Assembly (NCBI GenBank): GCA_963717145.1
Contig: OY970325.1
Coordinates: 1,440,001 to 1,504,000 of the forward strand
DNA: 64,000 bases
Direction: 5' to 3'
Source: an uncultured Armatimonadetes bacterium
GTDB taxonomy: Bacteria > Armatimonadota > UBA5829 > DTJY01
A program made the translations under genes and the position numbers. Positions within the stretch are counted from its first letter, which is position 1. Each line of letters starts with the position of its first letter. This document shows positions 5,275-45,880 of the stretch, one piece after another. Under the pieces are notes generated by a model that saw only the letters and a list, made by a program, of their open reading frames with translations, ran no database searches and was not told where the DNA came from.

Positions 5275-7413
5275 TCACTTCCGCCACTCGACCTTGTCGC
5301 CGCCGATGACGCGTGTCAGGATCGGCTGATCGTCCTTCACCCGAACAAGCGCGAATCGGCCGTCGGTGACCAGCGGACTCCCCTGCTCCACCCTGCCCGT
5401 GTAGATGTAGTCCGTGACGCCGTCGTGCGCGACCCTCACGAGCCCGTGATCGAGTCCGCACACGGTGTAGAGCTTCCCCTCGTACGGATAGAGCACGGAC
5501 GTGAAGACTGCCTCCCTCCCCGTCTTCCGGGCGACGATGAGCGGCACCTTCCGGTTGAGCGCTTCCGCCGGGCACTTGCAGTCAGCCACCGAATACCTGC
5601 CCTCGTCGAGCATGAAGAGCCCGAGCCCCTGATCGCCGCTCTCCCATCGCGCCTGCCACTTCCCATCGGCCTGATGCGTCGTCACCGATTCTACGAAGGC
5701 ATACTTCGGCGGATCGGAGGATTCCGTCGGCAACAGGCCTGTGGAGAGGTCGCCCTCCGATCGGAGGAACCAGTCGTAGGTGTGCTCAGAATCGCTCGTG
5801 AGGCTATCGATCATCACGTAGTATCCGTCCACCCGGACGATCGTCCGCCGGTGGAGAACTCCTGGGTACGCTTCCTCGGTTTCGCCCTCCGCGACCTCGA
5901 AGACCTCGTCACCCTCGAAGCAGGTCAGCCGCCGTTCCTTCGTGGCGGCCTGATTCCTCCCATCGACGACCACCGTGTTGTGCGCCGGGGTGCTCTTGTA
6001 CCAGGCAAGCGCAGCGGAACCGTAGCCGCAGGTCCCATAGTCAGCCACCAGTAGCTTCCCGTTCGCCCAGAGCGTGATACCCATCTTGTCAGGCTGGCCG
6101 TGGCCGAGGTAGGGCCCGTAGTCGAACGTGAGCATGCTCTTGTCGCCCGAACGGAGAGTCGCAATCCCGAGGACCGGATAGTCGATCGAATCGAACTCGG
6201 GCTTCGGGCACTCACACTCCAGGCTATCGCCTTTCAGGAATGCCCACAAGCCGGTGCGGTCTGCCTTTCTGAGCGCATAACCCTCCTTGAGCGCCCAGCC
6301 GATCGCCGGATCTCCGGTTCGCAGGTAGGCCAGCTCATACTGATCGAGCGGCAGAAACACGTCGAACCATCCGTCGTTGATCGCGGGCAGCCGCGTGTCG
6401 GGGTACATGTAGCCAAGTGGAGCGGTGAACATCGCCTTGAGGCTCTTGCCGGGCCTCGCCTCCCAGTGGAAGAGATCCGTACCATTGTGATATGCCGCCT
6501 CCGCGAGGTAGAGGAACGCCGCAAGCGGATAGAAGTGATACGTGTGCACCGATTCCGGCCACAGGCCGTCGTCGCCGAGCTGATTGGTGATCTGCGACTT
6601 GAAGCTCGTGATCGCATAGTCGATCAGCTCCTGGTCGCCGATCGCGTACCCGATCACGCCGGTCGCCGATAGGTGCCATGAGCCCCAGTTGCCGCCGAGG
6701 CCCATGTTCTTGAGCCCGGTGGCCACCGGTCGGAACAGCTTGCCCTCGATCTTCTCCCGCAGCTCAGGTGTCATTGCTGGGGAATCGTAGACGAGGTCGT
6801 AGGCCCACGCGAGCGGAATCGACCACACCGATTCGCAGAGCGACTGGTACATAATGCCGCCTTGGACATTGGACGTATGCGGGCCGGGATAGGCGTCGGC
6901 GTACTTCGAGAGGATCTCGACCGCCTTCGACGCGTACCGGGTGTCGCCCTCGATCGCATATGTCAGCGCCAGGTCGAACGCCGCGCGGGAGAGCCCGTTG
7001 TGGGCCCACCACCGAACGCCGCCATCATACCGCTCGCCCTGGTAGACTTTCCCGCAGGCCGGGCATTTGTAGCCCTCAGGATGCTCTTTCATGTCCTGAG
7101 GGACTTCGAGCTGATTGCCGTCACTGCAGAAGAAGTTGTGGAAATGGCCGCTCCGTGCGGGGATGACGATCTCCCGCCCGAGCCACGCGTCGGCGTCGGT
7201 CTTCACGCCGGAACCGAGCCTGAGGGCATGTGAGTTCGGGGCCGAGAGGTAGACATCACGCTTCCAACCGTCGGCCCGGACCTCCTGCCTCAGCCTGGTG
7301 ATCTCCTCCGCGCTCAGGAGTATGCGGGGACTTGTGTGGGAAGCGCCGGCATTCGATGCGAGTATGCATGCGCCGAGTCCGATGACGAGCGCGAGTCCTT
7401 GCCATGAAATCAT
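5275..7413 (-). CDS. Secreted heparinase II/III-family polysaccharide lyase with alginate-lyase-like N domain
   Basis: Signal peptide; NWGSW, DGLWPE..YHFY, GHGQPDK, AHNTVVVDG. Confidence 0.85.
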   Translation of the reverse strand: MISWQGLALVIGLGACILASNAGASHTSPRILLSAEEITRLRQEVRADGWKRDVYLSAPNSHALRLGSGVKTDADAWLGREIVIPARSGHFHNFFCSDGNQLEVPQDMKEHPEGYKCPACGKVYQGERYDGGVRWWAHNGLSRAAFDLALTYAIEGDTRYASKAVEILSKYADAYPGPHTSNVQGGIMYQSLCESVWSIPLAWAYDLVYDSPAMTPELREKIEGKLFRPVATGLKNMGLGGNWGSWHLSATGVIGYAIGDQELIDYAITSFKSQITNQLGDDGLWPESVHTYHFYPLAAFLYLAEAAYHNGTDLFHWEARPGKSLKAMFTAPLGYMYPDTRLPAINDGWFDVFLPLDQYELAYLRTGDPAIGWALKEGYALRKADRTGLWAFLKGDSLECECPKPEFDSIDYPVLGIATLRSGDKSMLTFDYGPYLGHGQPDKMGITLWANGKLLVADYGTCGYGSAALAWYKSTPAHNTVVVDGRNQAATKERRLTCFEGDEVFEVAEGETEEAYPGVLHRRTIVRVDGYYVMIDSLTSDSEHTYDWFLRSEGDLSTGLLPTESSDPPKYAFVESVTTHQADGKWQARWESGDQGLGLFMLDEGRYSVADCKCPAEALNRKVPLIVARKTGREAVFTSVLYPYEGKLYTVCGLDHGLVRVAHDGVTDYIYTGRVEQGSPLVTDGRFALVRVKDDQPILTRVIGGDKVEWRK

Positions 7414-36046: not shown

Positions 36047-39000
36047 GTGGACATTCGCGTGCTCATCTTCAAGGAAGAAGACTTCCCATTCATCGATACC
36101 ACTTCAGTCGATACTCAGGAGATCGTGGACGCGCTCCCACCGGTCCAGGAGGTTCGCTCTGTCGGAGTTGCCGGCCTGAGGGAGCGGCTCCGTGCCGACT
36201 CGATCGATCTTTTCATAAACCCTTACGGCTCGGCATTCCCAAAGGATGCCTGGCCGGAGATACACGAGTACCTCGCCGGAGGTGGAAACCTGCTCAACCT
36301 CGGCGGCGCGCCGTTCAGCGTCCCGGTCCGACGTGACGGAAAGGACTGGCATCAGGAGATCCGTCAGACGCAGAATCACCGCGAGCTTGGGATCAACCAG
36401 GCGTACCCGGTCGAGACATCCGGCATCAAGCGGTATGACACCACGAGCACCGAGCCGCTGCTCTCGGGGTTGATCGAGGATTTCTCCTGCGACAAGGTGT
36501 TCGAACTGCAGGTGAGGTTCACCAGCGCAAACGATCATCCGAACGAGTTCGGCAGTTCGGGCGCACGGGAAGCGATCCTCCGTCCGCTGCTCTACGCGTA
36601 TGACTCCGATGGCCGACGACTTGCCGCACCGATCATCGCGATCGACCGCGTGCTCGGCCGGTTCGCCGGCGGACGATGGGTGCTCGCCAACTTCGAGTCC
36701 AAGGCGCTTCCGAGGAAAGAGGCGATAGGACGGCTGGCGGCATATGCGGCTCTCGGGGCGACCGACATGCAGATCAGGCCATCGTTCGCATCCTACAAGC
36801 CTGACGAGCGCGCCAGTCTGATCCTGCACGTCAATCGCCTGGGGACATCCGGTGATGGGCCGCTCAACTTGTTCTTGACGATCCGCAAGGAGAAGTCGAC
36901 TGTCAAGACCGAGAGCATCGATATCAGCGATTTCGCGTCTCCATACTACCTCGACATCCCGGTCACTCAGCCGCTGACTCCCGGCCTCTACTCGATCGAA
37001 GCCAGGCTCTCGACCGGCAACCCGCAACTGACTGACAAGTACGCCGACTACGCTTCCACCGGCTTCTGGTGCTATGACAAAGCGCTCGTCGGGATGACGC
37101 AGCCGCTCTCCGCAGGCAAGGACTACTTCCAACGCGAGAGCAAGCCGGTTGCCCTGATCGGCACGACTTACATGGCGTCGGATGTCCACCGTAAGTTCCT
37201 TTTCGAACCGAATCCCGCGGCGTGGGACCGTGACTTCGAGGAGATGCGGGCTGAAGGCATCAACATCGTCCGAACCGGCATCTGGACAGGGTTCCGGCAG
37301 ATCATGCTCGATCCCGGCGCTCCGAGCGAGGGGATAATGCGCGCGTTCGAGGCGTTCATGTTGACCGCCGCCCAGCACGATATGCCGGTGATCTTCACGT
37401 TCTTCGCATTCGCGCCGGAGATGTGGGAGGGCGCCAATATCTACCTCGATCCGAGGTGTCTCCAGGCGCAGAAGGAGTTCATCGCGGCCTTCAGCCGCAG
37501 GTTCGCCAAGTTCAACAACCTGATCTGGGACCTGATCAATGAGCCGTGCACCAAGCGTCCGAACCGGGACGCATTCGAGGAGGCCGCCTGGCGCGAGTGG
37601 ATCTCCGAGCGACACAATCTCGAAGAGAAGTGGAAGATGACCCCCCGGACCAGCAAGGCGCTCCCGGAACCGCAGGACTTCGATGATGCACAGATCTTCG
37701 AGAATGCGCATCCGGTCCGCAAGCTGGACTACATGCTCTTCTCGCAGGACGTCTTCAACCGCTGGGTCCGGGAAATGACCGCCGTCATCCGCCAGAACGG
37801 CAACCTGAAGCAGCTCATCACCGTCGGCCAGGAAGAGGGCGGGACCGGCGAGAGCCCGAATCCGCAGTTCCACTGGAAGGAGGTCGATTTCACCTGCAAC
37901 CATACCTGGTGGCTGATGGACGACCTGCTCTGGGACGGCCTCGTGACCAAGACGCCGGAGAAGCCGAACCTGATCGAAGAGACCGGTATCATGTTCGTCG
38001 AAAACCTCGACCGCTCCCACCGGCGCACGGAGATCGACTGCCGGAACCTGCTCGAGCGCAAGTTCGTGATGGCGTTTGCATCCGGCGGCGCAGGGGTCAT
38101 TCAGTGGATCTGGAACACGAACATCTTCATGGCCAGCGACAACGAGGTGGCGTGCGGCTTCCACCGGGCCGACCTGACCCGCAAGCCGCAACTGGAGTTC
38201 GTCAAGCCGATGTCGGCGTTCCTCAAGGAGGCCCGCTCGCACTTCATCGACCGCCGGCCGGAGGACGTATGCATGGTGATCCCCCACTCCGCCATGTTCT
38301 CCGTGCGCGACCCGGCGACTCCGGCCACAAAGGTCTGCACGCGCCTGATGAGCTACGATCTCGGCATCCCGATACGCGCGGTCGGGGAGTATACGCTGGA
38401 GAACCTCGGCAAGCCCAAACTGATCGTGCTTCCGTCGCCCAGGGTGTTGAGCCAAAGCGCGTGGGAGACGCTTCTGTGGGCGGTCGATGCAGGCTCGACG
38501 CTGCTCGTGACCGGGCCGATCGACTGGGATGAGTACTGGCGTCCGGTGGATCGGCTGGGGCAGTTCGAGATCGAAGCGGCCACCAGGCCGGTCACCCGCG
38601 AGGAGGAGGCAATCATCTTCGGCAGCGAGTATCGGGTGAGCTTCGGCGGCGACAAGATCGCACGGGTCGATAAGGCGGTCCTCGGAGGGCTCGGCGGCAC
38701 GGTTCGGACGGAGCAGATCGGCGCGGGGAAGCTTGTCTACTCGGCGCTCCCGGTCGAGCTGGCGGACAACATCGAGCCGGCGATCGCACTATACCAGTTT
38801 GCGCTGAAGCAGGCGGTGCTTCAGTCGCCATTCAGCATCGAGAAGCCCGAGCCCGGTGTGCTGATCCGGCCGCTGTTCTTCAAAGATGCGATCCTTTACT
38901 CGCTCGTCTCAGAGACCGACGTGGACAAGGAGCTTTCGTTCACCGACAACGCGACCGGCAAGGCACTCAAGGTGACGGTCCCCGCCCAGCGCGCGGTGAT

Positions 39001-39061
39001 GTTCCTCCTCGGCAGGGATGGGAAGGTCCTGGCGGAGTACGGGGGAGGTATGCATAGCTGA
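36047..39061 (+). CDS. Large clan GH-A glycoside hydrolase (GH5/GH42-like) with GATase-like domains
   Basis: GINIVR, WDLINEP acid/base, LIEETG nucleophile, trimerisation-like C-domain; GGAGG RBS, GTG start. Confidence 0.8.
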   Translation: MDIRVLIFKEEDFPFIDTTSVDTQEIVDALPPVQEVRSVGVAGLRERLRADSIDLFINPYGSAFPKDAWPEIHEYLAGGGNLLNLGGAPFSVPVRRDGKDWHQEIRQTQNHRELGINQAYPVETSGIKRYDTTSTEPLLSGLIEDFSCDKVFELQVRFTSANDHPNEFGSSGAREAILRPLLYAYDSDGRRLAAPIIAIDRVLGRFAGGRWVLANFESKALPRKEAIGRLAAYAALGATDMQIRPSFASYKPDERASLILHVNRLGTSGDGPLNLFLTIRKEKSTVKTESIDISDFASPYYLDIPVTQPLTPGLYSIEARLSTGNPQLTDKYADYASTGFWCYDKALVGMTQPLSAGKDYFQRESKPVALIGTTYMASDVHRKFLFEPNPAAWDRDFEEMRAEGINIVRTGIWTGFRQIMLDPGAPSEGIMRAFEAFMLTAAQHDMPVIFTFFAFAPEMWEGANIYLDPRCLQAQKEFIAAFSRRFAKFNNLIWDLINEPCTKRPNRDAFEEAAWREWISERHNLEEKWKMTPRTSKALPEPQDFDDAQIFENAHPVRKLDYMLFSQDVFNRWVREMTAVIRQNGNLKQLITVGQEEGGTGESPNPQFHWKEVDFTCNHTWWLMDDLLWDGLVTKTPEKPNLIEETGIMFVENLDRSHRRTEIDCRNLLERKFVMAFASGGAGVIQWIWNTNIFMASDNEVACGFHRADLTRKPQLEFVKPMSAFLKEARSHFIDRRPEDVCMVIPHSAMFSVRDPATPATKVCTRLMSYDLGIPIRAVGEYTLENLGKPKLIVLPSPRVLSQSAWETLLWAVDAGSTLLVTGPIDWDEYWRPVDRLGQFEIEAATRPVTREEEAIIFGSEYRVSFGGDKIARVDKAVLGGLGGTVRTEQIGAGKLVYSALPVELADNIEPAIALYQFALKQAVLQSPFSIEKPEPGVLIRPLFFKDAILYSLVSETDVDKELSFTDNATGKALKVTVPAQRAVMFLLGRDGKVLAEYGGGMHS

Positions 39062-39150: not shown

Positions 39151-40131
39151 TTACTTATCCGTCGCCCAGGGATACTTGAACCCGTGGACCCAGGCGTGCG
39201 TATGAAGGCGCTCGACCTCCTCGGGCGTCATCTCGACCTTGTCGGAAACCGCAATGTTCTCATCGACATGTCCCGCGCTCCTCATGCCGGGGATCACCGT
39301 CGAAACCGCCGGGTGCGCGAGGGTGAACTTCAGCGCCGCCTGAGCCATCGTGCGACGGTCGTTCTCAACCCAACGGAGCGCCTCGACGTGCTCCCACGCC
39401 TCCTCGAGTCGCCCATCCCCGAGCCATCGAGCGCGCCAATCGCCCTCAGCGAACTGATAGCCCGGACCGATCTTGCCGGTCAGGAGGCCCTCCTCGAACG
39501 GGACGCGGACGATGATGCCGACGTTGTGCTCGATCGCCGCCGGGAAGAGCTGCTCGGCCGGACGCTGCTCGAAGATGCTGTAGATCACCTGGACGCTGTC
39601 TATGAGGTCGGATTTCACCAGCTCGACTCCGCCATACGGGTCCCAGTCGTTCACGCTGACGCCGAAGAAGCGGATCTTCCCTTGCTCCTTGAGTTTCACG
39701 AGCGCTTCGTACCACTGCATGTCCTCGTTGAAGGCGTCGCTCCAGACGTGAAGCTGGGTCAGGTCCAGGCAGTCGGTTTCGAGGTTGCGAAGGCTTCGCT
39801 CGGTCATCTCGATGATCCAGTCCTTCGGGAAGACCTCGCTCACCGGGACGCCCGGGATCGGCGGCCACTTGTAGTTCTTCGGCGGGACCTTCGAGGCAAC
39901 CATGCATCGCTCTCCACGCTCCTTGAACGCGCGGGCGATCAACTTCTCGCTGTGACCGTCACCGTAGCACGCCGCGGTATCTATGAAGTTGAGGCCCTGA
40001 TCCATCGCGCGCTGGATCGCCGCGACGGCATCGTCGTCCTCCTTCGAGCCCCAGTCGCCGCCGATGCCCCATGCGCCGAACCCGACCTCCGATATCATCA
40101 TTCCCGTCCGTCCCAGGCTTCTGTACTTCAT
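39151..40131 (-). CDS. Aldo/keto reductase
   Basis: GFGAWGIGG, DTAACYG, SLRNL.TD, GKIRFFGVS, VIPG. Confidence 0.93.
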   Translation of the reverse strand: MKYRSLGRTGMMISEVGFGAWGIGGDWGSKEDDDAVAAIQRAMDQGLNFIDTAACYGDGHSEKLIARAFKERGERCMVASKVPPKNYKWPPIPGVPVSEVFPKDWIIEMTERSLRNLETDCLDLTQLHVWSDAFNEDMQWYEALVKLKEQGKIRFFGVSVNDWDPYGGVELVKSDLIDSVQVIYSIFEQRPAEQLFPAAIEHNVGIIVRVPFEEGLLTGKIGPGYQFAEGDWRARWLGDGRLEEAWEHVEALRWVENDRRTMAQAALKFTLAHPAVSTVIPGMRSAGHVDENIAVSDKVEMTPEEVERLHTHAWVHGFKYPWATDK

Positions 40132-40177
40132 CTCACCCTCCGATTGGTTCGTTGCCTCACTATACCACAGGGAGGAG

Positions 40178-40218
40178 AGAACACGGAAGCACGGAAGGAG
40201 AGGAAGACACAGAAGGAG
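40178..40218. repeat. ACACGGAAG-type degenerate array
   Basis: acacggaagcacggaaggagaggaagacacagaagg; sibling at 59778. Confidence 0.5.
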
Positions 40219-40258
40219 ATTTGTCGTAATTCACGGAAGACTTGAGGGAGGAAGCGGA

Positions 40259-41323
40259 ATGAAGGGGATTCGGATGTCCACTGTGAAATCCTATGCTCAA
40301 GCTGTCCTCGGTAAGCTGATCGAGCGCATCGGCATTCGGTCGGTCGCGTTCGAGGCGACACAGGAGTGCAACCAGGACTGCGTCTTCTGTTACAACGTCT
40401 GGAAGGCCGGCGCGTATCCGCATGGGCAAATGGATGCCGCCCGGTCGAAGGATCTTCTCGATCGCATCATCCGGGGATACCGCCCGCAGGTTCTCAGCTT
40501 CACCGGCGGAGAGCCGCTGCTTCGACCGGATATCGTCGAGCTGGTCCGACACGTCTCCCGGCGAGTCAGCACCAACCTCATCACCAATGGCACGCTCATG
40601 ACCGACGACTTGGCGAGGGAACTCGTTCAAGCGAAGGTGCGCACCTTCGAGTTCACGCTCCTCTCTGCTGATCGCGAGGTCCACAACTCGCTTGTCGGGC
40701 GCAAGTCGTTCGATGAGGTGATCGATGGGATAGCTTCAGTCCGCGCAGCGGGAGGCAATGTGGCCACCACCTTCGTCGCGATGAAGCAGAACATCGGTTC
40801 GTGGCAGGAAACCCTCCAACTGAACGCGGCGCTCGGCGTCTCGGGGATACTCTTCAACCGGTTCAACGTCGGCGGTTCGGGCATCGAGTGCGCGGACGAG
40901 TTGATGCCGTCGGTCGATCAGTTGAACGAGGCGCTCAGGCTCGCCGACGAGGGCGCAGAACGATTCGGAATCAGCATCTCGTGCGGAGTGCCGATTCCGC
41001 CGTGCGTGGTTGATTGGGATCGTTACCCGAACGTTCACTTCAGCCACTGCCCGGTCGGGACTCGCAAGGCATACCCAACGGTCGATCCGCTTGGGAATGT
41101 CCGTCCGTGCAACCACTCGCCCACGCTGCTCGGCAACCTATTCGACTCTGATATGCGGACGATCCTCCGCTCCCATGCCGCGGCCGGGTATGCATCCGGC
41201 ACGCCGGATGAGTGCCTCGACTGCGAACATGCGCCCGTCTGCCGTGGAGGATGCCGCGCGGCATCCGAAGTCTGTGGGGATGCGTGCGGCATCGATCCGT
41301 TCGTGGAGCTCTGCGGAGGATAA
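40259..41323 (+). CDS. Radical SAM/SPASM domain protein (PqqE-like maturase architecture)
   Basis: CNQDCVFC, TGGEP, ITNG; SPASM CPVG..GNVRPC..CLDC..CRGGC; GGGAGG RBS. Confidence 0.92.
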   Translation: MKGIRMSTVKSYAQAVLGKLIERIGIRSVAFEATQECNQDCVFCYNVWKAGAYPHGQMDAARSKDLLDRIIRGYRPQVLSFTGGEPLLRPDIVELVRHVSRRVSTNLITNGTLMTDDLARELVQAKVRTFEFTLLSADREVHNSLVGRKSFDEVIDGIASVRAAGGNVATTFVAMKQNIGSWQETLQLNAALGVSGILFNRFNVGGSGIECADELMPSVDQLNEALRLADEGAERFGISISCGVPIPPCVVDWDRYPNVHFSHCPVGTRKAYPTVDPLGNVRPCNHSPTLLGNLFDSDMRTILRSHAAAGYASGTPDECLDCEHAPVCRGGCRAASEVCGDACGIDPFVELCGG

Positions 41324-41329
41324 CACGCC

Positions 41330-41575
41330 GTGAAGATCACTCGAGACACCGTAATCAAATGGATTCTTGGCCTGACCTTTCTCGCGATAGCAGCGGCACA
41401 AGGATGGCGGATGTGGCAGGAACTTCGTGAGAACTGCAGGATGTGCTACCTGCCGACCAATGAGCTACCGAAGCAGTCGATGGATCACTCGTCCTTGACC
41501 CGTAAGTACCATGACCTCGGGGTGATGAGCGACTCGGCGTTTGAGAAGATCTCGGAGATTCGGCATGGGGCGTAG
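41330..41575 (+). CDS. Small membrane protein with CY motif and SHOCT-like tail
   Basis: GGAGGA RBS, GTG start; TM; MCY..LTRKYHDLGVMSDSAFEKI. Confidence 0.75.
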   Translation: MKITRDTVIKWILGLTFLAIAAAQGWRMWQELRENCRMCYLPTNELPKQSMDHSSLTRKYHDLGVMSDSAFEKISEIRHGA

Positions 41576-41620
41576 CTTTTCGGGCCGCTGAACCGTTGTG
41601 GTATGTGGGGGTAATAGACG

Positions 41621-42418
41621 ATGAGGAACCTGCACTTCGCGTATGTCGTCATAGCCGTTCTGCTGTTCGGGGCCGGGCTGTTCAAGGTCAAGGTCTGGGA
41701 ACGTTCACTGGGACTCCGACCGACGGAGTTCAGGCTAGAGATGTCGGAGAAGCACTTGTCGACGATCTCCGACCTGCTCCATGTATATCGAGTACGCACC
41801 GGCCGATACCCAACGAATGATGAGGGACTCCTTGCGGTGCCGGAGTTGGCGGCTCTCGTCGGCAGTTCAGGGGAGGTTCGTTCCCGGGACTATCGCTGGA
41901 GAATGAATGACGCCGGGATACTTTCTCCGTGGGGTGAGCCCTACATCTACGAGAATGAAACGCACGAGTCAGGGAACGCCATGTGGTTGGTGCGGGTGAA
42001 CGATGATGTCTGCGTCTGGTCACTGGCGGCAAAGAAGGCATACAGCCATTACTCGACGTGGTCATCCTGGCTGGGGCGAGCCAGGATTGCCCTTATGCTC
42101 GCAGCCATCCTCTTCTTCGCTGCTTTCATCCGAGGCGCCGTTCGAGCAGGCGCATCATCACCTGCCAGCAAGCTTCCCCGAACAGCCCTCCATCTACTCG
42201 GGGGCATTGGGCTCGGCGCGGTCGTGGCATTGTTTCTCCCCGTATTGATGGGTGTCACGACGTGCTACGTCACGAACTACGGGAACCGGTCTCGCACGCC
42301 GAAACTGACCAGGGAGTACATGGCCTTGATGACGGAGTACCGCGGGCGCGGCATCATCGGCGACTCGGCGTTCGAGAAGATCGAGGCGGCGATGAAGAAG
42401 AGCAGCGGCGAGGACTGA
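41621..42418 (+). CDS. 3-TM protein with GspG-like (T2SSG) domain, CY motif and SHOCT-like tail
   Basis: YRVRTGRYPTNDEGL, SPWGEPYIY; TCY..LMTEYRGRGIIGDSAFEKI. Confidence 0.8.
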   Translation: MRNLHFAYVVIAVLLFGAGLFKVKVWERSLGLRPTEFRLEMSEKHLSTISDLLHVYRVRTGRYPTNDEGLLAVPELAALVGSSGEVRSRDYRWRMNDAGILSPWGEPYIYENETHESGNAMWLVRVNDDVCVWSLAAKKAYSHYSTWSSWLGRARIALMLAAILFFAAFIRGAVRAGASSPASKLPRTALHLLGGIGLGAVVALFLPVLMGVTTCYVTNYGNRSRTPKLTREYMALMTEYRGRGIIGDSAFEKIEAAMKKSSGED

Positions 42419-42430
42419 CAGGAGGGCGAC

Positions 42431-43282
42431 ATGCGCTACCTATGTCTGGCAATCGGGCTCATACTCCTGGCTTTGGGAATCTTCGGATTCGATGGCCGGG
42501 CCGGGCGGATACTGGACCCGTATCCTCCGCTGCGGGGTCTCGATTCGAGCAGACAGCAGATGGAGTGGGTCGCCCATTTCGTGAGGGAGTACCGGGTCAC
42601 CAATGGGCACTATCCGTCCAACGATGAAGGTCTGATCCTCATTACCGATACGATTCGGCGCGCACGTGCCGACGAGCACAGGTCAACCGATGGCGACACT
42701 CCCAAGTGGCCGGGGTTCCGGCCGGGCCAGTTCGACGGTATCTCCGTCACTTCGCTTTGGGACGAGCCCTTCATCTACGAGAACCGCCGAGGGATCCCGG
42801 CAGCCAAGTTCGCCGGATCGATGGTGGACGCGGACAAGGACCGAGAGTACTCGGTCCGGGTGGATGACGGCGTGTATATCTGGTGTCTCGCCGCCGCTAA
42901 GCTCGACGAGATACATCACTCCCGTCTGAGAAAGAGAACTCCGATCAGAGCATCGCTGATCGGCCTCGGTTCGTTGTTGGTCCTTGCCTACCTGATTCCC
43001 ACCGTCAGATCGGTCGATCGATCCCGACGGGGATTCCCTGCATACCGAGAACTGCTGGGGTCACTCGCAGGTGGCTTCGGTGTCGGCGCGCTCGTGTTCA
43101 TATTCCTCTCGCCCCTGTTCGCCCACGTCTCGTGCTACAAGATGGCGATCATGCACCCGCCGCGCCTGCGCGAGGGTTACGAGGAGTTGATGACCAGGTA
43201 CCGGGATCAGGGCGTGATCAGCGATGAGGCGTATGAGAAGCTGATCCTATCGGTCAGCAAGTATCGAAACCACCGCCGATAG
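42431..43282 (+). CDS. 3-TM protein with GspG-like (T2SSG) domain, CY motif and SHOCT-like tail
   Basis: YRVTNGHYPSNDEGL, SLWDEPFIYEN; SCY..LMTRYRDQGVISDEAYEKL. Confidence 0.8.
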   Translation: MRYLCLAIGLILLALGIFGFDGRAGRILDPYPPLRGLDSSRQQMEWVAHFVREYRVTNGHYPSNDEGLILITDTIRRARADEHRSTDGDTPKWPGFRPGQFDGISVTSLWDEPFIYENRRGIPAAKFAGSMVDADKDREYSVRVDDGVYIWCLAAAKLDEIHHSRLRKRTPIRASLIGLGSLLVLAYLIPTVRSVDRSRRGFPAYRELLGSLAGGFGVGALVFIFLSPLFAHVSCYKMAIMHPPRLREGYEELMTRYRDQGVISDEAYEKLILSVSKYRNHRR

Positions 43283-43318
43283 AGGACATCCGGCAGCCGC
43301 AGTCTAATGCGGAATGAG

Positions 43319-43345
43319 CGGGAGGGCGTTGAAGCCCTCCCCTAC
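43319..43345 (-). repeat. GTAG-family REP
   Basis: GTAGGGGAGGGCTTCAACGCCCTCCCG. Confidence 0.75.
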
Positions 43346-43362
43346 CGTTTGTGAGGACATGA

Positions 43363-43893
43363 ATGAGACGAGTTGCCGTCATTGGATGCGGGGGAGCAGG
43401 TAAGTCGACGCTCGCGAGGGAGCTTGGCTCGATCCTTGGCATCGAGGTCATCCACCTGGATGCGCTGAACTGGAAGCCGGGATGGGTCGATACCCCGACA
43501 GAGGAGTTCCGGGCGGTGCAGGATGACCTCTTGAAGCGCGACTCCTGGATCATCGACGGCAACTACGGGGCCACGATGCCCGGCCGCCTCGCCGCGGCGG
43601 ATACCGTTGTGTTCCTGGACTACCCTACCCTCCTCTGCCTCTACCGCGCCATCAGGCGGATCATCCATTACTATGGAAGAACCAGGCCGGACATGGGTCC
43701 GGGTTGCCCTGAGAAGTTCGACCTGTCCTACGTCAACTGGATCCTCGGATTCCGCAGGCGGCCTCGGACATCGATTCTCAGACGGATCGAGGAGCACTGT
43801 GAGGGCAAGAGAGTGATCATCCTGCGCAGTCCGAAGGAGGCGGAGGCGTTCCTTCGAGAGCTGTCTCGGCACACCCCGACAGAGGCAGCGTAA
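43363..43893 (+). CDS. FlaR-like P-loop (adenylate-kinase-like) topology modulation protein
   Basis: GCGGAGKST, HLDALNWKPGW, WIIDGNY, GCPEKFD. Confidence 0.88.
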   Translation: MRRVAVIGCGGAGKSTLARELGSILGIEVIHLDALNWKPGWVDTPTEEFRAVQDDLLKRDSWIIDGNYGATMPGRLAAADTVVFLDYPTLLCLYRAIRRIIHYYGRTRPDMGPGCPEKFDLSYVNWILGFRRRPRTSILRRIEEHCEGKRVIILRSPKEAEAFLRELSRHTPTEAA

Positions 43894-45259
43894 CCGTGAA
43901 CTTCGTCCCGACGCCAACCGCGCTCTCCACATCGACCGTTCCTCCATGAGCGTCCGCTATCGTTCGCACTATGGAAAGCCCCAGTCCCGTTCCATCAAGT
44001 GTGAGTTTTCGGGCCTCGTCACTGCGGTAGAACTCCTCGAAGATGCGTTCCTGTTCCGCGTCGGGTATGCCGATGCCTGTGTCTGAGACCACTATTCGCA
44101 AGCGATCATCAGCTCCACCAACGCGCACGGTGACGGTCCCGCCCTGGTGCGAATACTTGATCGCATTGCTGACCAAGTTGGTGAGCAGTTGCTCCAGCCC
44201 CTCGGGGTCGCCGCAGATGACAGGAGTATCACCCCGTCTATCGGTAATCACGTTGATGGACCTGGCCCGGGCGTATTCCTCATGCAGGCCAACGACGGTT
44301 TCGATGAGCTGCTCGATGTGAATCTTCTTCCGTCTGGACGAGGGCAGCCTCTCCTCAGCGGCCGCGAGGATGAGAAGGTCGCCGACGACCGCAAGCAGTT
44401 CGCGCGTCCTGCGCTTGGCCCTCAGTATCATCTCGCGGGCATCCGGGGAAACCTCTCCGTGCAACCCATCGGCCACAACTCGCAGCAGGCTGTCCACCGC
44501 CGCCAGCGGAGAACGCAACTCGTGCGCCACCTTGCGCGTGTAGACGCGTTTCGCCTCATCAAGCCCGGCGAGATCATCGTAAGCGATCTGGAGCATATCC
44601 GCATTGTGGCTGACCTTCCGCAGCAGTGTAACCACCTGATCCTCCCGGAAGCGCAGACGGCTGGCGGTCGATGTCGCAAGGTAGACCGTCCCATAAAGCG
44701 CGGTCGCCATCACCCAGACAGCCCCGAGGACCGAGGTCCCGTTCACGTGCATTCCGGGGAAAACCATGCCAATCGGTGAGTCGTAGTGGGGAAGCAGTTC
44801 AAAGTACTCACCGATCGCCATGATCGCGAAGATGGCCAGGGCCACCGTGGCCTGTGCATAGGCGGCTCGCCGGGAGAGCAGAATGCTTGCGATCACCATG
44901 TGGAAAACGAAATAGAAGCCAAAGAGGTTCTCGATACCGCCTGAGAAGTGGATGAGCACTCCGAGGATGACCAGATCGCACACGATCTGGATGTTCGCCA
45001 GCCGTGAGGAGATCCTCTCGATATGCTCGACCCCGACGCGGTTGACCTGTCGCCAGTCCAGATAGGCCACCAGGTTGTAGCACGGGATGGCGCATGCGGT
45101 GACGTACAGGCTCAACCATGGAAGAGAGCTGTCGAATGCGAGGCGCGCGACCAATATCGTGGCGGCAACTCCGACAAACGCAAGCCAGCGGAGGCGGATG
45201 AGCCACCCGATCCGATCGATAAGCTCGAGTTGCGAGAGGCTGAGGTCGTCATTCTCCAT
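43817..45259 (-). CDS. Membrane sensor histidine kinase
   Basis: About 6 TM; AHELRSPL, NLVSNAIKY, DTGIGI, GTGLGL. Confidence 0.92.
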   Translation of the reverse strand: MENDDLSLSQLELIDRIGWLIRLRWLAFVGVAATILVARLAFDSSLPWLSLYVTACAIPCYNLVAYLDWRQVNRVGVEHIERISSRLANIQIVCDLVILGVLIHFSGGIENLFGFYFVFHMVIASILLSRRAAYAQATVALAIFAIMAIGEYFELLPHYDSPIGMVFPGMHVNGTSVLGAVWVMATALYGTVYLATSTASRLRFREDQVVTLLRKVSHNADMLQIAYDDLAGLDEAKRVYTRKVAHELRSPLAAVDSLLRVVADGLHGEVSPDAREMILRAKRRTRELLAVVGDLLILAAAEERLPSSRRKKIHIEQLIETVVGLHEEYARARSINVITDRRGDTPVICGDPEGLEQLLTNLVSNAIKYSHQGGTVTVRVGGADDRLRIVVSDTGIGIPDAEQERIFEEFYRSDEARKLTLDGTGLGLSIVRTIADAHGGTVDVESAVGVGTKFTVTLPLSGCAETALEGTPPPPSDCAG

Positions 45260-45272
45260 GACGAGTACGGCC

Positions 45273-45686
45273 CTATCTCTTACTTGCCAGGATAGCTTCG
45301 ATCTTCGCAGCAAGCCGATCCGGATCCAGAGGCTTCTCGAGGAATCCCTGGACAGGCAGGTAATCTCCACTTTCGTCGGAGTCGCCTTGCCCGAAGCGGA
45401 ACCCGGTGGTCTGATGGATCGAACTGGCGACGATGATCGGCACTTCTCGAAGCGACGTATCCGTGTGATGCCTGATCTTGGAGACCCACTGGAATCCTTC
45501 GATCCCCTGCGGCATCATGATGTCCAGGATGATCAGATCGGGCCTTGCTTCCTCCAATGCCTTGAACCCCGCGTCAGGACCCTCCGCTGTGACGACCTCG
45601 TAACCCCGGTCCTGGAGGAGAAGCTTCGTCGCGTCACGGTAGTCAGGATCGTCATCGACAATCAGGATCTTTGACTTGCTCGCCAT
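45273..45686 (-). CDS. Single-domain response regulator
   Basis: ILIVDDD, PDLIILDIMMP, EKP; no output domain. Confidence 0.9.
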   Translation of the reverse strand: MASKSKILIVDDDPDYRDATKLLLQDRGYEVVTAEGPDAGFKALEEARPDLIILDIMMPQGIEGFQWVSKIRHHTDTSLREVPIIVASSIHQTTGFRFGQGDSDESGDYLPVQGFLEKPLDPDRLAAKIEAILASKR

Positions 45687-45880
45687 ATGTCCTTCACCTC
45701 TCTGGAACAAGCTCTGTGGCGTGTTCCGTTGATCAGAAACTGACTTAAGTTAAGAGTATGTCAAAACCCGGCTTTTGTCAAATTCCCATGGCTTTCACTG
45801 CTATGCAGGAGCATCCTCACCGGCCAAACTTGACATCACCCAACCCGCGTGGTACCTTACCGGTGATAGAGGTGACCACA

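Follow-up and report, generated by a model that had tools for sequence, protein, structure and literature searches.

Why should the gene of a radical S-adenosylmethionine (SAM)/SPASM enzyme be followed, on the same strand, by three otherwise divergent open reading frames (ORFs) which all encode a Cys-Tyr pair and a similar C-terminal tail? The question is raised by positions 40259 to 43282 of a 64,000-nucleotide stretch of DNA from an uncultured Armatimonadetes bacterium (contig OY970325.1, positions 1,440,001 to 1,504,000), which is called the window here and to which the coordinates of this locus refer. The first-pass annotation had proposed an enzyme with three paralogous substrates forming an undescribed system. 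This core claim is supported by the co-occurrence of enzyme and partners and by the conservation of the Cys-Tyr pair, while its assignment of the tail to SHOCT failed. It is probable, in our judgement, that ORFs A, B and C are three local substrates of a protein maturase which docks past the Cys-Tyr pair and modifies that loop. Enzyme and partner genes co-occur on the same strand and genome-wide, the Cys-Tyr pair is invariant, and many partners bear export signals; we infer that the enzyme acts on the partners as substrates, that the modification falls on Cys-Tyr and that it precedes export. The locus is a local variant of a widespread, undescribed enzyme-partner pair whose role is probably to modify exported proteins.

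The enzyme and its three Cys-Tyr partners

The enzyme gene (40259..41323, plus strand) encodes 354 residues from its ATG, the full ORF being 40064..41323. The protein scores 89.9 bits with Pfam Radical_SAM PF04055 (cut-off 29.5), and its CxxxCxxC motif, formed by C37, C41 and C44, is invariant across 36 family members. The same is found for the C-terminal cysteines C249, C264, C284, C319, C322, C328 and C332, which include CX2CX5CX3C and make up the cysteine set for two auxiliary clusters that characterizes SPASM enzymes. GGEP (83-86) is also invariant in the family alignment, and R139 is near-invariant. Pfam SPASM PF13186 is unlisted at E<=1 for the window enzyme and is precomputed on many homologues, e.g., P0002 and P0003; alignments to the SPASM families PqqE, NirJ2 and GeoRSP are full-length, extending to enzyme residues 336-349. 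As the cluster motif begins at residue 37 of 354, there is no space for an N-terminal peptide-recognition domain. On the family profile the window enzyme reaches 545 bits; the paralogue family that comes next in the phylum stays at 172.6. Relatives at E<=1e-10 number 1011, and the 40 closest relatives of the source genome are without an orthologue, the best match having 31% identity and 104.5 bits.

No NCBIfam model reaches its cut-off with the window enzyme. The best is NirJ2 (97.3 bits vs 500), followed by PqqE (94.1 bits) and AhbD (94 bits); AhbD tops the list of the enzyme at locus L062 of the family, at 104.5 bits. Among solved structures, PqqE 6c8v is nearest in sequence (E 2.4e-26, profile positions 17-341). 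Scores so far under the family cut-offs (381-500 bits) are, as far as sequence comparison can tell, general SPASM likeness only. They nevertheless bring in a different explanation, in which the enzyme would act on a small molecule (a tetrapyrrole, a cofactor or a membrane lipid) and the Cys-Tyr proteins would be its acceptors, carriers or ligands, the Cys serving as covalent attachment point or metal ligand and the Tyr as second ligand. Besides the likeness to the tetrapyrrole and cofactor enzymes NirJ2, PqqE and AhbD, this explanation can draw on the lack of a recognition domain ahead of the cluster motif and on the fact that only two adjacent residues are invariant in the partners, as expected of a binding or attachment site. 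We consider it unlikely, given how far the scores lie below the cut-offs, and the evidence of the following sections also speaks against it: no cofactor-biosynthesis gene is conserved beside the pair, the co-fold sets Cys-Tyr and tail on the enzyme itself (0.83 vs 0.45), and up to 9 modules per protein suit repeated modification sites.

The three partner genes lie on the plus strand as well. ORF A (41330..41575) has a GTG start and encodes 81 residues with a moderately hydrophobic helix, the pair C39-Y40 and a two-helix tail. ORF B (41621..42418) encodes 265 residues, with an N-terminal membrane helix, a GspG-like domain, two hydrophobic helices, C215-Y216 and the tail; ORF C (42431..43282; 283 residues) has the same architecture, with its pair at C235-Y236. 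The spacings from the enzyme to A, A to B and B to C, computed from the ORF coordinates, are 6, 45 and 12 nt, just as had been claimed. A GGAGGA sequence is found at 41315-41320, 9 nt ahead of the GTG of ORF A and within the 3' end of the enzyme gene, and a promoter and terminator scan of 39900-43500 gave counts no better than chance. That the four genes form an operon is part of the explanation which we hold, as a whole, to be probable.

All three ORFs do carry Cys-Tyr and then the tail, as described by the first-pass annotation. ORF A reads MCY (residues 38-40), ORF B TCY (214-216) and ORF C SCY (234-236), or M/T/S-C-Y-L/V/K with the residue that follows. The pair is encoded by TGC TAC in each case (41444..41449, 42263..42268 and 43133..43138, plus strand). 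The motif LxxxY(R/H)xxG(V/I)xxDxA(F/Y)EK begins 15, 19 and 16 residues past Cys-Tyr in A, B and C, respectively, and spans L56-K73 in A (41495..41548, plus strand), L236-K253 in B (42326..42379, plus strand) and L253-K270 in C (43187..43240, plus strand), where it includes Y257, G261, I263 and K270, invariant in the family. The columns invariant in the three ORFs are, in the numbering of A, C39, Y40, L56, Y60, G64, D68, A70, E72 and K73. At the DNA level, A and B have a 22-nt stretch in common with one mismatch, as had been noticed; the copies (41530..41551 and 42361..42382, both plus strand) encode DSAFEKI, and 0 of 100 shuffles gave any match. Chance likeness of the three tails was rejected on the basis of this shuffle test, the B/C family alignment and the profile-profile comparison given below.

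Two details of the earlier description call for caution. The hydrophobic helix of A is weaker and stays under a Kyte-Doolittle mean of 1.6 over 19 residues, a value exceeded by three segments each in B and C. The tail had been called SHOCT-like; no match to SHOCT (PF09851) was found at E<=1 in A, B or C, and the lone SHOCT match, at 13.9 bits vs a cut-off of 27, is in an unrelated partner. A SHOCT domain in the tails was therefore rejected, as Pfam gives no support for it. Pfam also reveals no recognition domain in the three proteins.

The N-terminal parts of B and C resemble type II secretion system (T2SS) protein G. Behind an N-terminal hydrophobic helix both contain its core G-x-YP-x-N-x-x-GL ... 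P-x-x-YEN; ORF B passes the cut-off of Pfam T2SSG PF08334 (28.2 bits vs 21) and ORF C stays just short of it (20.4 bits), while both lie far from the GspG equivalog TIGR01710 (28 and 13.9 bits vs a cut-off of 88.85). In contrast to GspG, B and C add two membrane helices and the Cys-Tyr tail after the domain. No prepilin cleavage/methylation site of the G/F-T-L-I-E type is visible at the N-termini MRNLHFAYVV and MRYLCLAIGL. In a search of 5.8 billion proteins, 15 homologues of ORF C were found, and in the resulting 17-row B/C alignment the pseudopilin-like core, C235-Y236 and the tail residues Y257, G261, I263 and K270 are invariant. ORF A has one homologue, likewise of 81 residues and 69% identical, which reads VTCY and thus keeps the Cys-Tyr pair. 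From its sequence, it is plausible that the 81-residue ORF A is a minimal substrate, as had been suggested.

The AlphaFold 2 (AF2) model of ORF C has a mean predicted local distance difference test (pLDDT) score of 80.9. The Cys-Tyr loop (234-239) falls below 50; it links the last membrane helix to a helix-turn-helix tail that is modelled with confidence (helices 246-259 and 265-281). Foldseek and a wide VIA-align search with this model gave nothing at E<=0.001 and Z scores below 8, with pseudopilin chains appearing at E ~4.

A widespread enzyme-module pair

The enzyme family profile was run against species-representative genomes, where it found 400 places, and the best 80 loci were examined. 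These belong to Planctomycetota, Chloroflexota, Lentisphaerota, Verrucomicrobiota, Myxococcota, Armatimonadota and other phyla. The partners encoded beside the enzyme share a module of ~90 residues, which consists of a helix, (E/T)(D/M)xx(V/A)-T-C-Y-(D/K/E)-(P/M), ~15 residues and two or three helices, the family logo at the pair being T-C-Y-(D/K/E)-(P/M)-(M/A). With the module profile at least one module was found in 66 of the 80 loci, and all 124 domains (124/124) are on the enzyme strand. The modules lie upstream only in 64 of these 66 loci, downstream only in one and on both sides in one, so that the order in the window, with the partners downstream, is an exception. The window type differs in further respects as well, with three partners and two of them fused to a GspG-like domain. 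New in the present locus are the pseudopilin-fused, membrane-anchored partner type, the three tandem downstream partners and the 81-residue minimal form.

The link between the tails of the window and the modules of other genomes was traced with profiles. The window-type (B/C family) tail profile matches same-strand neighbours of the enzyme, with E-values down to 3.6e-16 for GspG-type and 2.8e-8 for other types. In the profile-profile comparison by hhalign, the B/C family and 63 modules of other types align with 94.3% probability (E 9.6e-8) over 48 columns, TCY on TCY and the B/C tail on the helices after the pair. A, B and C have the Cys-Tyr loop followed by two helices, homology to the module at the profile level and same-strand adjacency to an in-family enzyme, and we place them in the module family.

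The first-pass annotation had tied its proposal to tail homologues that occur together with the enzyme, and this association is borne out. Of 10 module matches in five other whole genomes, 9 adjoin the enzyme gene; the tenth has no family enzyme within 7 kb. Among 401 genomes sampled from the phylum the enzyme was found (528-545 bits) in G000, G345 and G392 only; these are also the only genomes with module matches at E<=1e-5, one further genome showing a weak match (6.8e-4). Two of the three probably contribute loci already counted as L044 and L100, and for them the agreement adds nothing to the 80-locus evidence. A search for GspG-type partners that made no use of the enzyme yielded 8 loci, in 7 of which the tail is present.

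Two module proteins were seen far from the enzyme gene in genomes that possess the enzyme, at G041:C1:2066780-2067082 (L161:5788-7548, minus strand) and at G392:C215:3489-3710 (L160:3120-3926, plus strand). Judged from sequence, these orphans could possibly be substrates encoded away from the enzyme gene.

Conservation of Cys-Tyr, the second mainstay of the proposal, is also confirmed. The pair is invariant in the 17 B/C homologues, and in 67 aligned modules C and Y are the only invariant residues. Because the first profile had been seeded on [ST]CY, the T-C-Y columns were blinded. Among 59 non-seed domains in the 80 loci, this blinded profile places Cys-Tyr at the column +/-1 in 48; of the remainder, 7 stop short of the column and 4 are misaligned or without the pair, one of them clearly so. 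Among 320 domains in 150 representative proteins Cys-Tyr is within 3 residues in 293 and within 4 in three more, and 13 domains do not span the column. Cys-Tyr pairs take up 318 of the 541 cysteines of these 150 proteins.

In 1.84 billion representatives the module profile detected 855 partner clusters at 50% identity (E<=0.001). The partners have 1-9 modules and lengths of 81-1478 residues; the largest number of modules in one protein, 9, was seen in P0139, of 1478 residues. Radical SAM/SPASM enzymes beside repeated short motifs typify sactipeptide, ranthipeptide and streptide systems, and with 1-9 modules per partner one may ask whether the Cys-Tyr proteins are precursors of ribosomal natural products, with the modules as repeated core peptides to be modified, excised and released. 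This is the least probable of the alternatives that we have weighed. The 80 loci have no conserved protease or exporter, and more generally no third gene (protease, transporter or cofactor-biosynthesis gene) conserved beside the pair: the largest neighbour clusters, once the enzyme and overlapping frames are set aside, are those of the partners (31, 24 and 6 loci), all others being found in at most 8 loci. Modules of ~90 residues fold as confident helical domains (pLDDT 90.4 for the model of the L062 partner), the partners bear signal peptides, membrane hairpins or a GspG-like domain, and the enzyme is without space for an N-terminal recognition element. In the model of the L062 partner, the Cys-Tyr pairs at 171-172 and 348-349 lie in non-helical stretches.

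The partners have no model of their own in Pfam or NCBIfam, Tat (twin-arginine translocation) signals being the sole matches at cut-off. A fold search with the L062 partner model gave nothing at E<=0.001 and Z scores below 8, a search of the ESM Atlas with the same partner as query gave no usable match, and a search of PDB sequences with the module profile returned one match only, at E 0.58. No description of the enzyme-partner pair was found in the literature, subscription papers and supplements being outside the search. We are thus dealing with a large family that has a sharply defined target motif and for which no curated name, structure or paper was found. To what is known of it the present analysis adds the profile-profile link between tail and module, the match of presence and absence across the phylum and a controlled co-fold.

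Some variation within the family is worth recording. A quick IQ-TREE tree puts the window enzyme in a clade of 12 enzymes on one well-supported branch (99*). Six of the 14 module-free loci (L073, L074, L081, L084, L086 and L089) have low-scoring enzymes of 366-395 bits; in the same tree the six split off at 99*, five of them forming one clade (96*) and L084 standing alone on a long branch. These six enzymes may serve a different partner. The profile aligns to the family enzyme at L169:543-1922 (plus strand; 479.5 bits) in two separate parts (residues 42-146 and 220-458), which suggests an insert of ~70 residues in its radical SAM core. At L083 the Chloroflexota-type partner that precedes the enzyme is broken up, directly after its second TCY, into two frames that overlap (5277-5726 and 5684-5989, plus strand), from the look of the sequence either by a frameshift or by an assembly error. 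A scan of genome contigs with the single enzyme protein gave 6 loci, all distant or partial, and a metagenome scan gave 29 loci. Only L129 among the latter is close (67% identity); in it a B/C-like gene stands directly after the enzyme at the contig end, with no A-like ORF between.

Proposed docking and export, and the points on the other side

The proposed mechanism starts with the cytoplasmic radical SAM/SPASM enzyme, which would dock on the two-helix tail of A, B and C. The flexible loop with Cys-Tyr would then thread into the active site and be modified there post-translationally, before the C-terminal part of the partner is transferred across the membrane.

Docking was addressed by co-folding the enzyme (36-row alignment) with residues 224-283 of ORF C (17-row alignment), SAM and three 4Fe-4S clusters. 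A score of 0.83 was obtained, the best of 3 controls giving 0.45. Of 80 solved complexes, 58 reach the mark used for such scores, as do 2 of 110 mismatched pairs; these counts are only a rough guide here, with custom alignments and small molecules included. At least 50% of the contacts agree between runs, and the partner pLDDT is at least 62. The contacts of lowest error are those of tail residues 257-271, among them the invariant Y257, G261, I263 and K270, with enzyme residues 155-163 and 187-192, and the confident partner contacts include 235-237 (Cys-Tyr-Lys) and the tail at 241-277. On the enzyme side, contact residues 80, 116, 137 and 139 adjoin the invariant GGEP and the near-invariant R139. 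As a model, the co-fold supports binding of the tail by the enzyme and does not show it; in so far as 257-271 make the most confident predicted contacts, it also favours a recognition role for the tail.

A tight co-occurrence and a predicted interface would suit any stable complex. The partners might therefore be unmodified membrane-bound regulators, anchors or chaperones, whose Cys-Tyr serves binding or redox sensing, and the tail that remained sticky in one co-fold control (0.45) would be in line with that. We judge this to be very unlikely. The Tat/Sec-type signals of many partners send them across the membrane, away from a cytoplasmic enzyme; a module number of 1-9 would be odd for a stoichiometric partner; and Cys-Tyr lies in the flexible loop, not in the docking helices.

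The signals themselves are widespread. An N-terminal hydrophobic stretch is present in 132 of the 150 representatives, and among 20 partners of the Chloroflexota type, 9 score at or above the NCBIfam cut-off for a Tat signal; such a signal fits cytoplasmic modification before export. Partners of the planctomycete type start with a hydrophobic helix, GPRWKRRL and a second helix, the first Cys-Tyr following 5-15 residues on. In P0149, P0199, P0229 and others, which are examples of this hairpin, the part comprising KRRL and the helix resembles an internal Tat-like signal. Given their pseudopilin-like domain, B and C would have the N-terminal domain facing outward, and with three helices the tail would then be outward as well. 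Counts of the charged residues that flank their helices do not decide the topology.

Several points weigh against A, B and C being substrates of a maturase. The predicted topology has Cys-Tyr outside the membrane, and hence the order of modification and then export must be assumed. One control kept the partner but exchanged the enzyme, and its score of 0.45 points to some stickiness of the amphipathic tail. In the source genome all three module matches are A, B and C, a result that is partly circular since the profile includes their rows, and the first module profile was seeded from windows picked for [ST]CY beside the enzyme. No module was detected in the examined flanks of 8 of 74 in-family loci, and 11 of the 320 domains span the column without having Cys-Tyr. 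Among 885 ORFs of the window, the module profile from other genomes matches ORF C alone, at E 2.6e-4, and a 64-row profile without rows from the window matches nothing in the window at E<=10; as these plain hidden Markov model (HMM) matches from other types are weak, the window-type tail is taken to be a divergent form of the module. Only 4 of the 7 tailed GspG-type partners have the enzyme within 7 kb. One GspG-type genome has it (479 bits) on another contig, and in two GspG-type metagenome-assembled genomes (MAGs), one of which keeps SCY, no enzyme was found at E<=1e-60. The linkage of the GspG type is weaker than that of the whole family, and incompleteness of the MAGs may explain part of it.

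As a single case, the GspG-type partner at L164:6401-7537 (plus strand), from a MAG without the enzyme at E<=1e-60, has VRYGP in place of TCY, the Cys being lost.

Known maturases and candidate chemistry

Few radical SAM/SPASM enzymes modify whole proteins, the textbook cases being the maturases of sulfatases and of amine dehydrogenases. The anaerobic sulfatase-maturating enzyme anSME (PDB 4k36/4k37) resembles the window enzyme in being a SPASM enzyme of ~350-390 residues without a peptide-recognition domain. It offers the closest functional parallel, as it acts on whole proteins which are exported later and on a short Cys-containing motif, as proposed for the window system. The sequence likeness of the two enzymes is confined to the radical SAM half (E 3.8e-14, positions 20-170), however, and the motifs differ: the sulfatase motif is C/S-x-P/A-x-R, whereas that of the window family is (T)CY, often followed by x-P, in partners that are helical-repeat or pseudopilin-like and have no sulfatase domain. 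The order of events proposed here would equal that of QhpD, which makes Cys thioether crosslinks in the QhpC subunit in the cytoplasm before periplasmic export. Unlike the qhp case, there are no dehydrogenase genes nearby, the motif and the partner fold are different, and no QhpD model is among the NCBIfam matches listed for the enzyme.

PqqE (6c8v), which acts with PqqA, resembles the window enzyme over the full length, and its chemistry involves Tyr, in a Glu-Tyr crosslink. Nevertheless, the 94.1 bits of the window enzyme compare with a cut-off of 381.35 for PqqE (TIGR02109), the locus has no PqqD-like chaperone or other pqq gene, and the partners of 81-1478 residues contrast with a peptide of ~25 residues. 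With MftC (TIGR03962) the window enzyme scores 69.4 bits and a Chloroflexota member 88.2 bits, the cut-off being 265. Membership of anSME, PqqE or MftC was rejected on the grounds that every score falls well short of its cut-off, and in the case of anSME the partners also lack the sulfatase motif and domain. The radical SAM-lipoprotein pair TIGR04133/TIGR04134 is alike in combining an uncharacterised SPASM enzyme with an exported partner and in being defined by genome context; two family enzymes score only 60.5 and 68.7 bits against the 425 required of its enzyme, and TIGR04133 is outside the best 25 matches of the window enzyme.

The sactipeptide and ranthipeptide maturases SkfB (6efn), CteB (5wgg) and AlbA, which also belong to the SPASM enzymes, join the sulfur of a Cys to a carbon atom of a second residue, and by analogy a linkage of this type is plausible as Cys-Tyr chemistry. 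They differ in carrying an N-terminal recognition domain and acting on short, leader-bearing peptides, and the likeness of SkfB and CteB to the window enzyme is limited to the radical SAM half (E 4.5e-17 and 4.8e-13). The maturases of ribosomally synthesized and post-translationally modified peptides (RiPPs) are marked by such a recognition domain, of ~90 residues, or by a PqqD-like gene, and neither was found in the window enzyme or its locus.

For the modification itself we rank a Cys-sulfur thioether or other Cys-sulfur crosslink, possibly onto Tyr, above a Tyr-centred crosslink, and the latter above oxidation of the Cys. Most likely it is the modified envelope proteins themselves, and not released peptides, that are the mature products. 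A more specific proposal, which at present we find rather doubtful, is that the enzyme installs a covalent Cys-Tyr structure (thioether-linked cysteinyl-tyrosine or a ring) in exported envelope proteins without oxygen. If true, this would define a new class of envelope proteins, redox-active or covalently stapled, both helical-repeat and pseudopilin-like, spanning Planctomycetota, Chloroflexota, Lentisphaerota, Verrucomicrobiota, Myxococcota and Armatimonadota, and its Cys-Tyr structure would parallel, in an anaerobic form, the Cys-Tyr cofactors which copper and iron oxidases make for themselves. ORF A offers a small candidate substrate, which could reveal a new post-translational modification, and the pair could account for unannotated envelope proteins in several poorly studied phyla.

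The surroundings of the four genes complete the description of the locus. A protein of 1004 residues is encoded upstream (window 36047-39061, plus strand), for which the only match is a weak one, in the middle, to glycoside hydrolase family 5 (29.1 bits, residues 392-598), the greater part of the protein being unassigned. Downstream, a small AAA-like gene (43363-43893, plus strand) and a PilS-like histidine kinase gene (43817-45370, minus strand) are convergent, with an overlap of 77 nt between their ORFs. The start of the PilS-like kinase ORF is in turn overlapped by a response regulator gene (45273-45710, minus strand).

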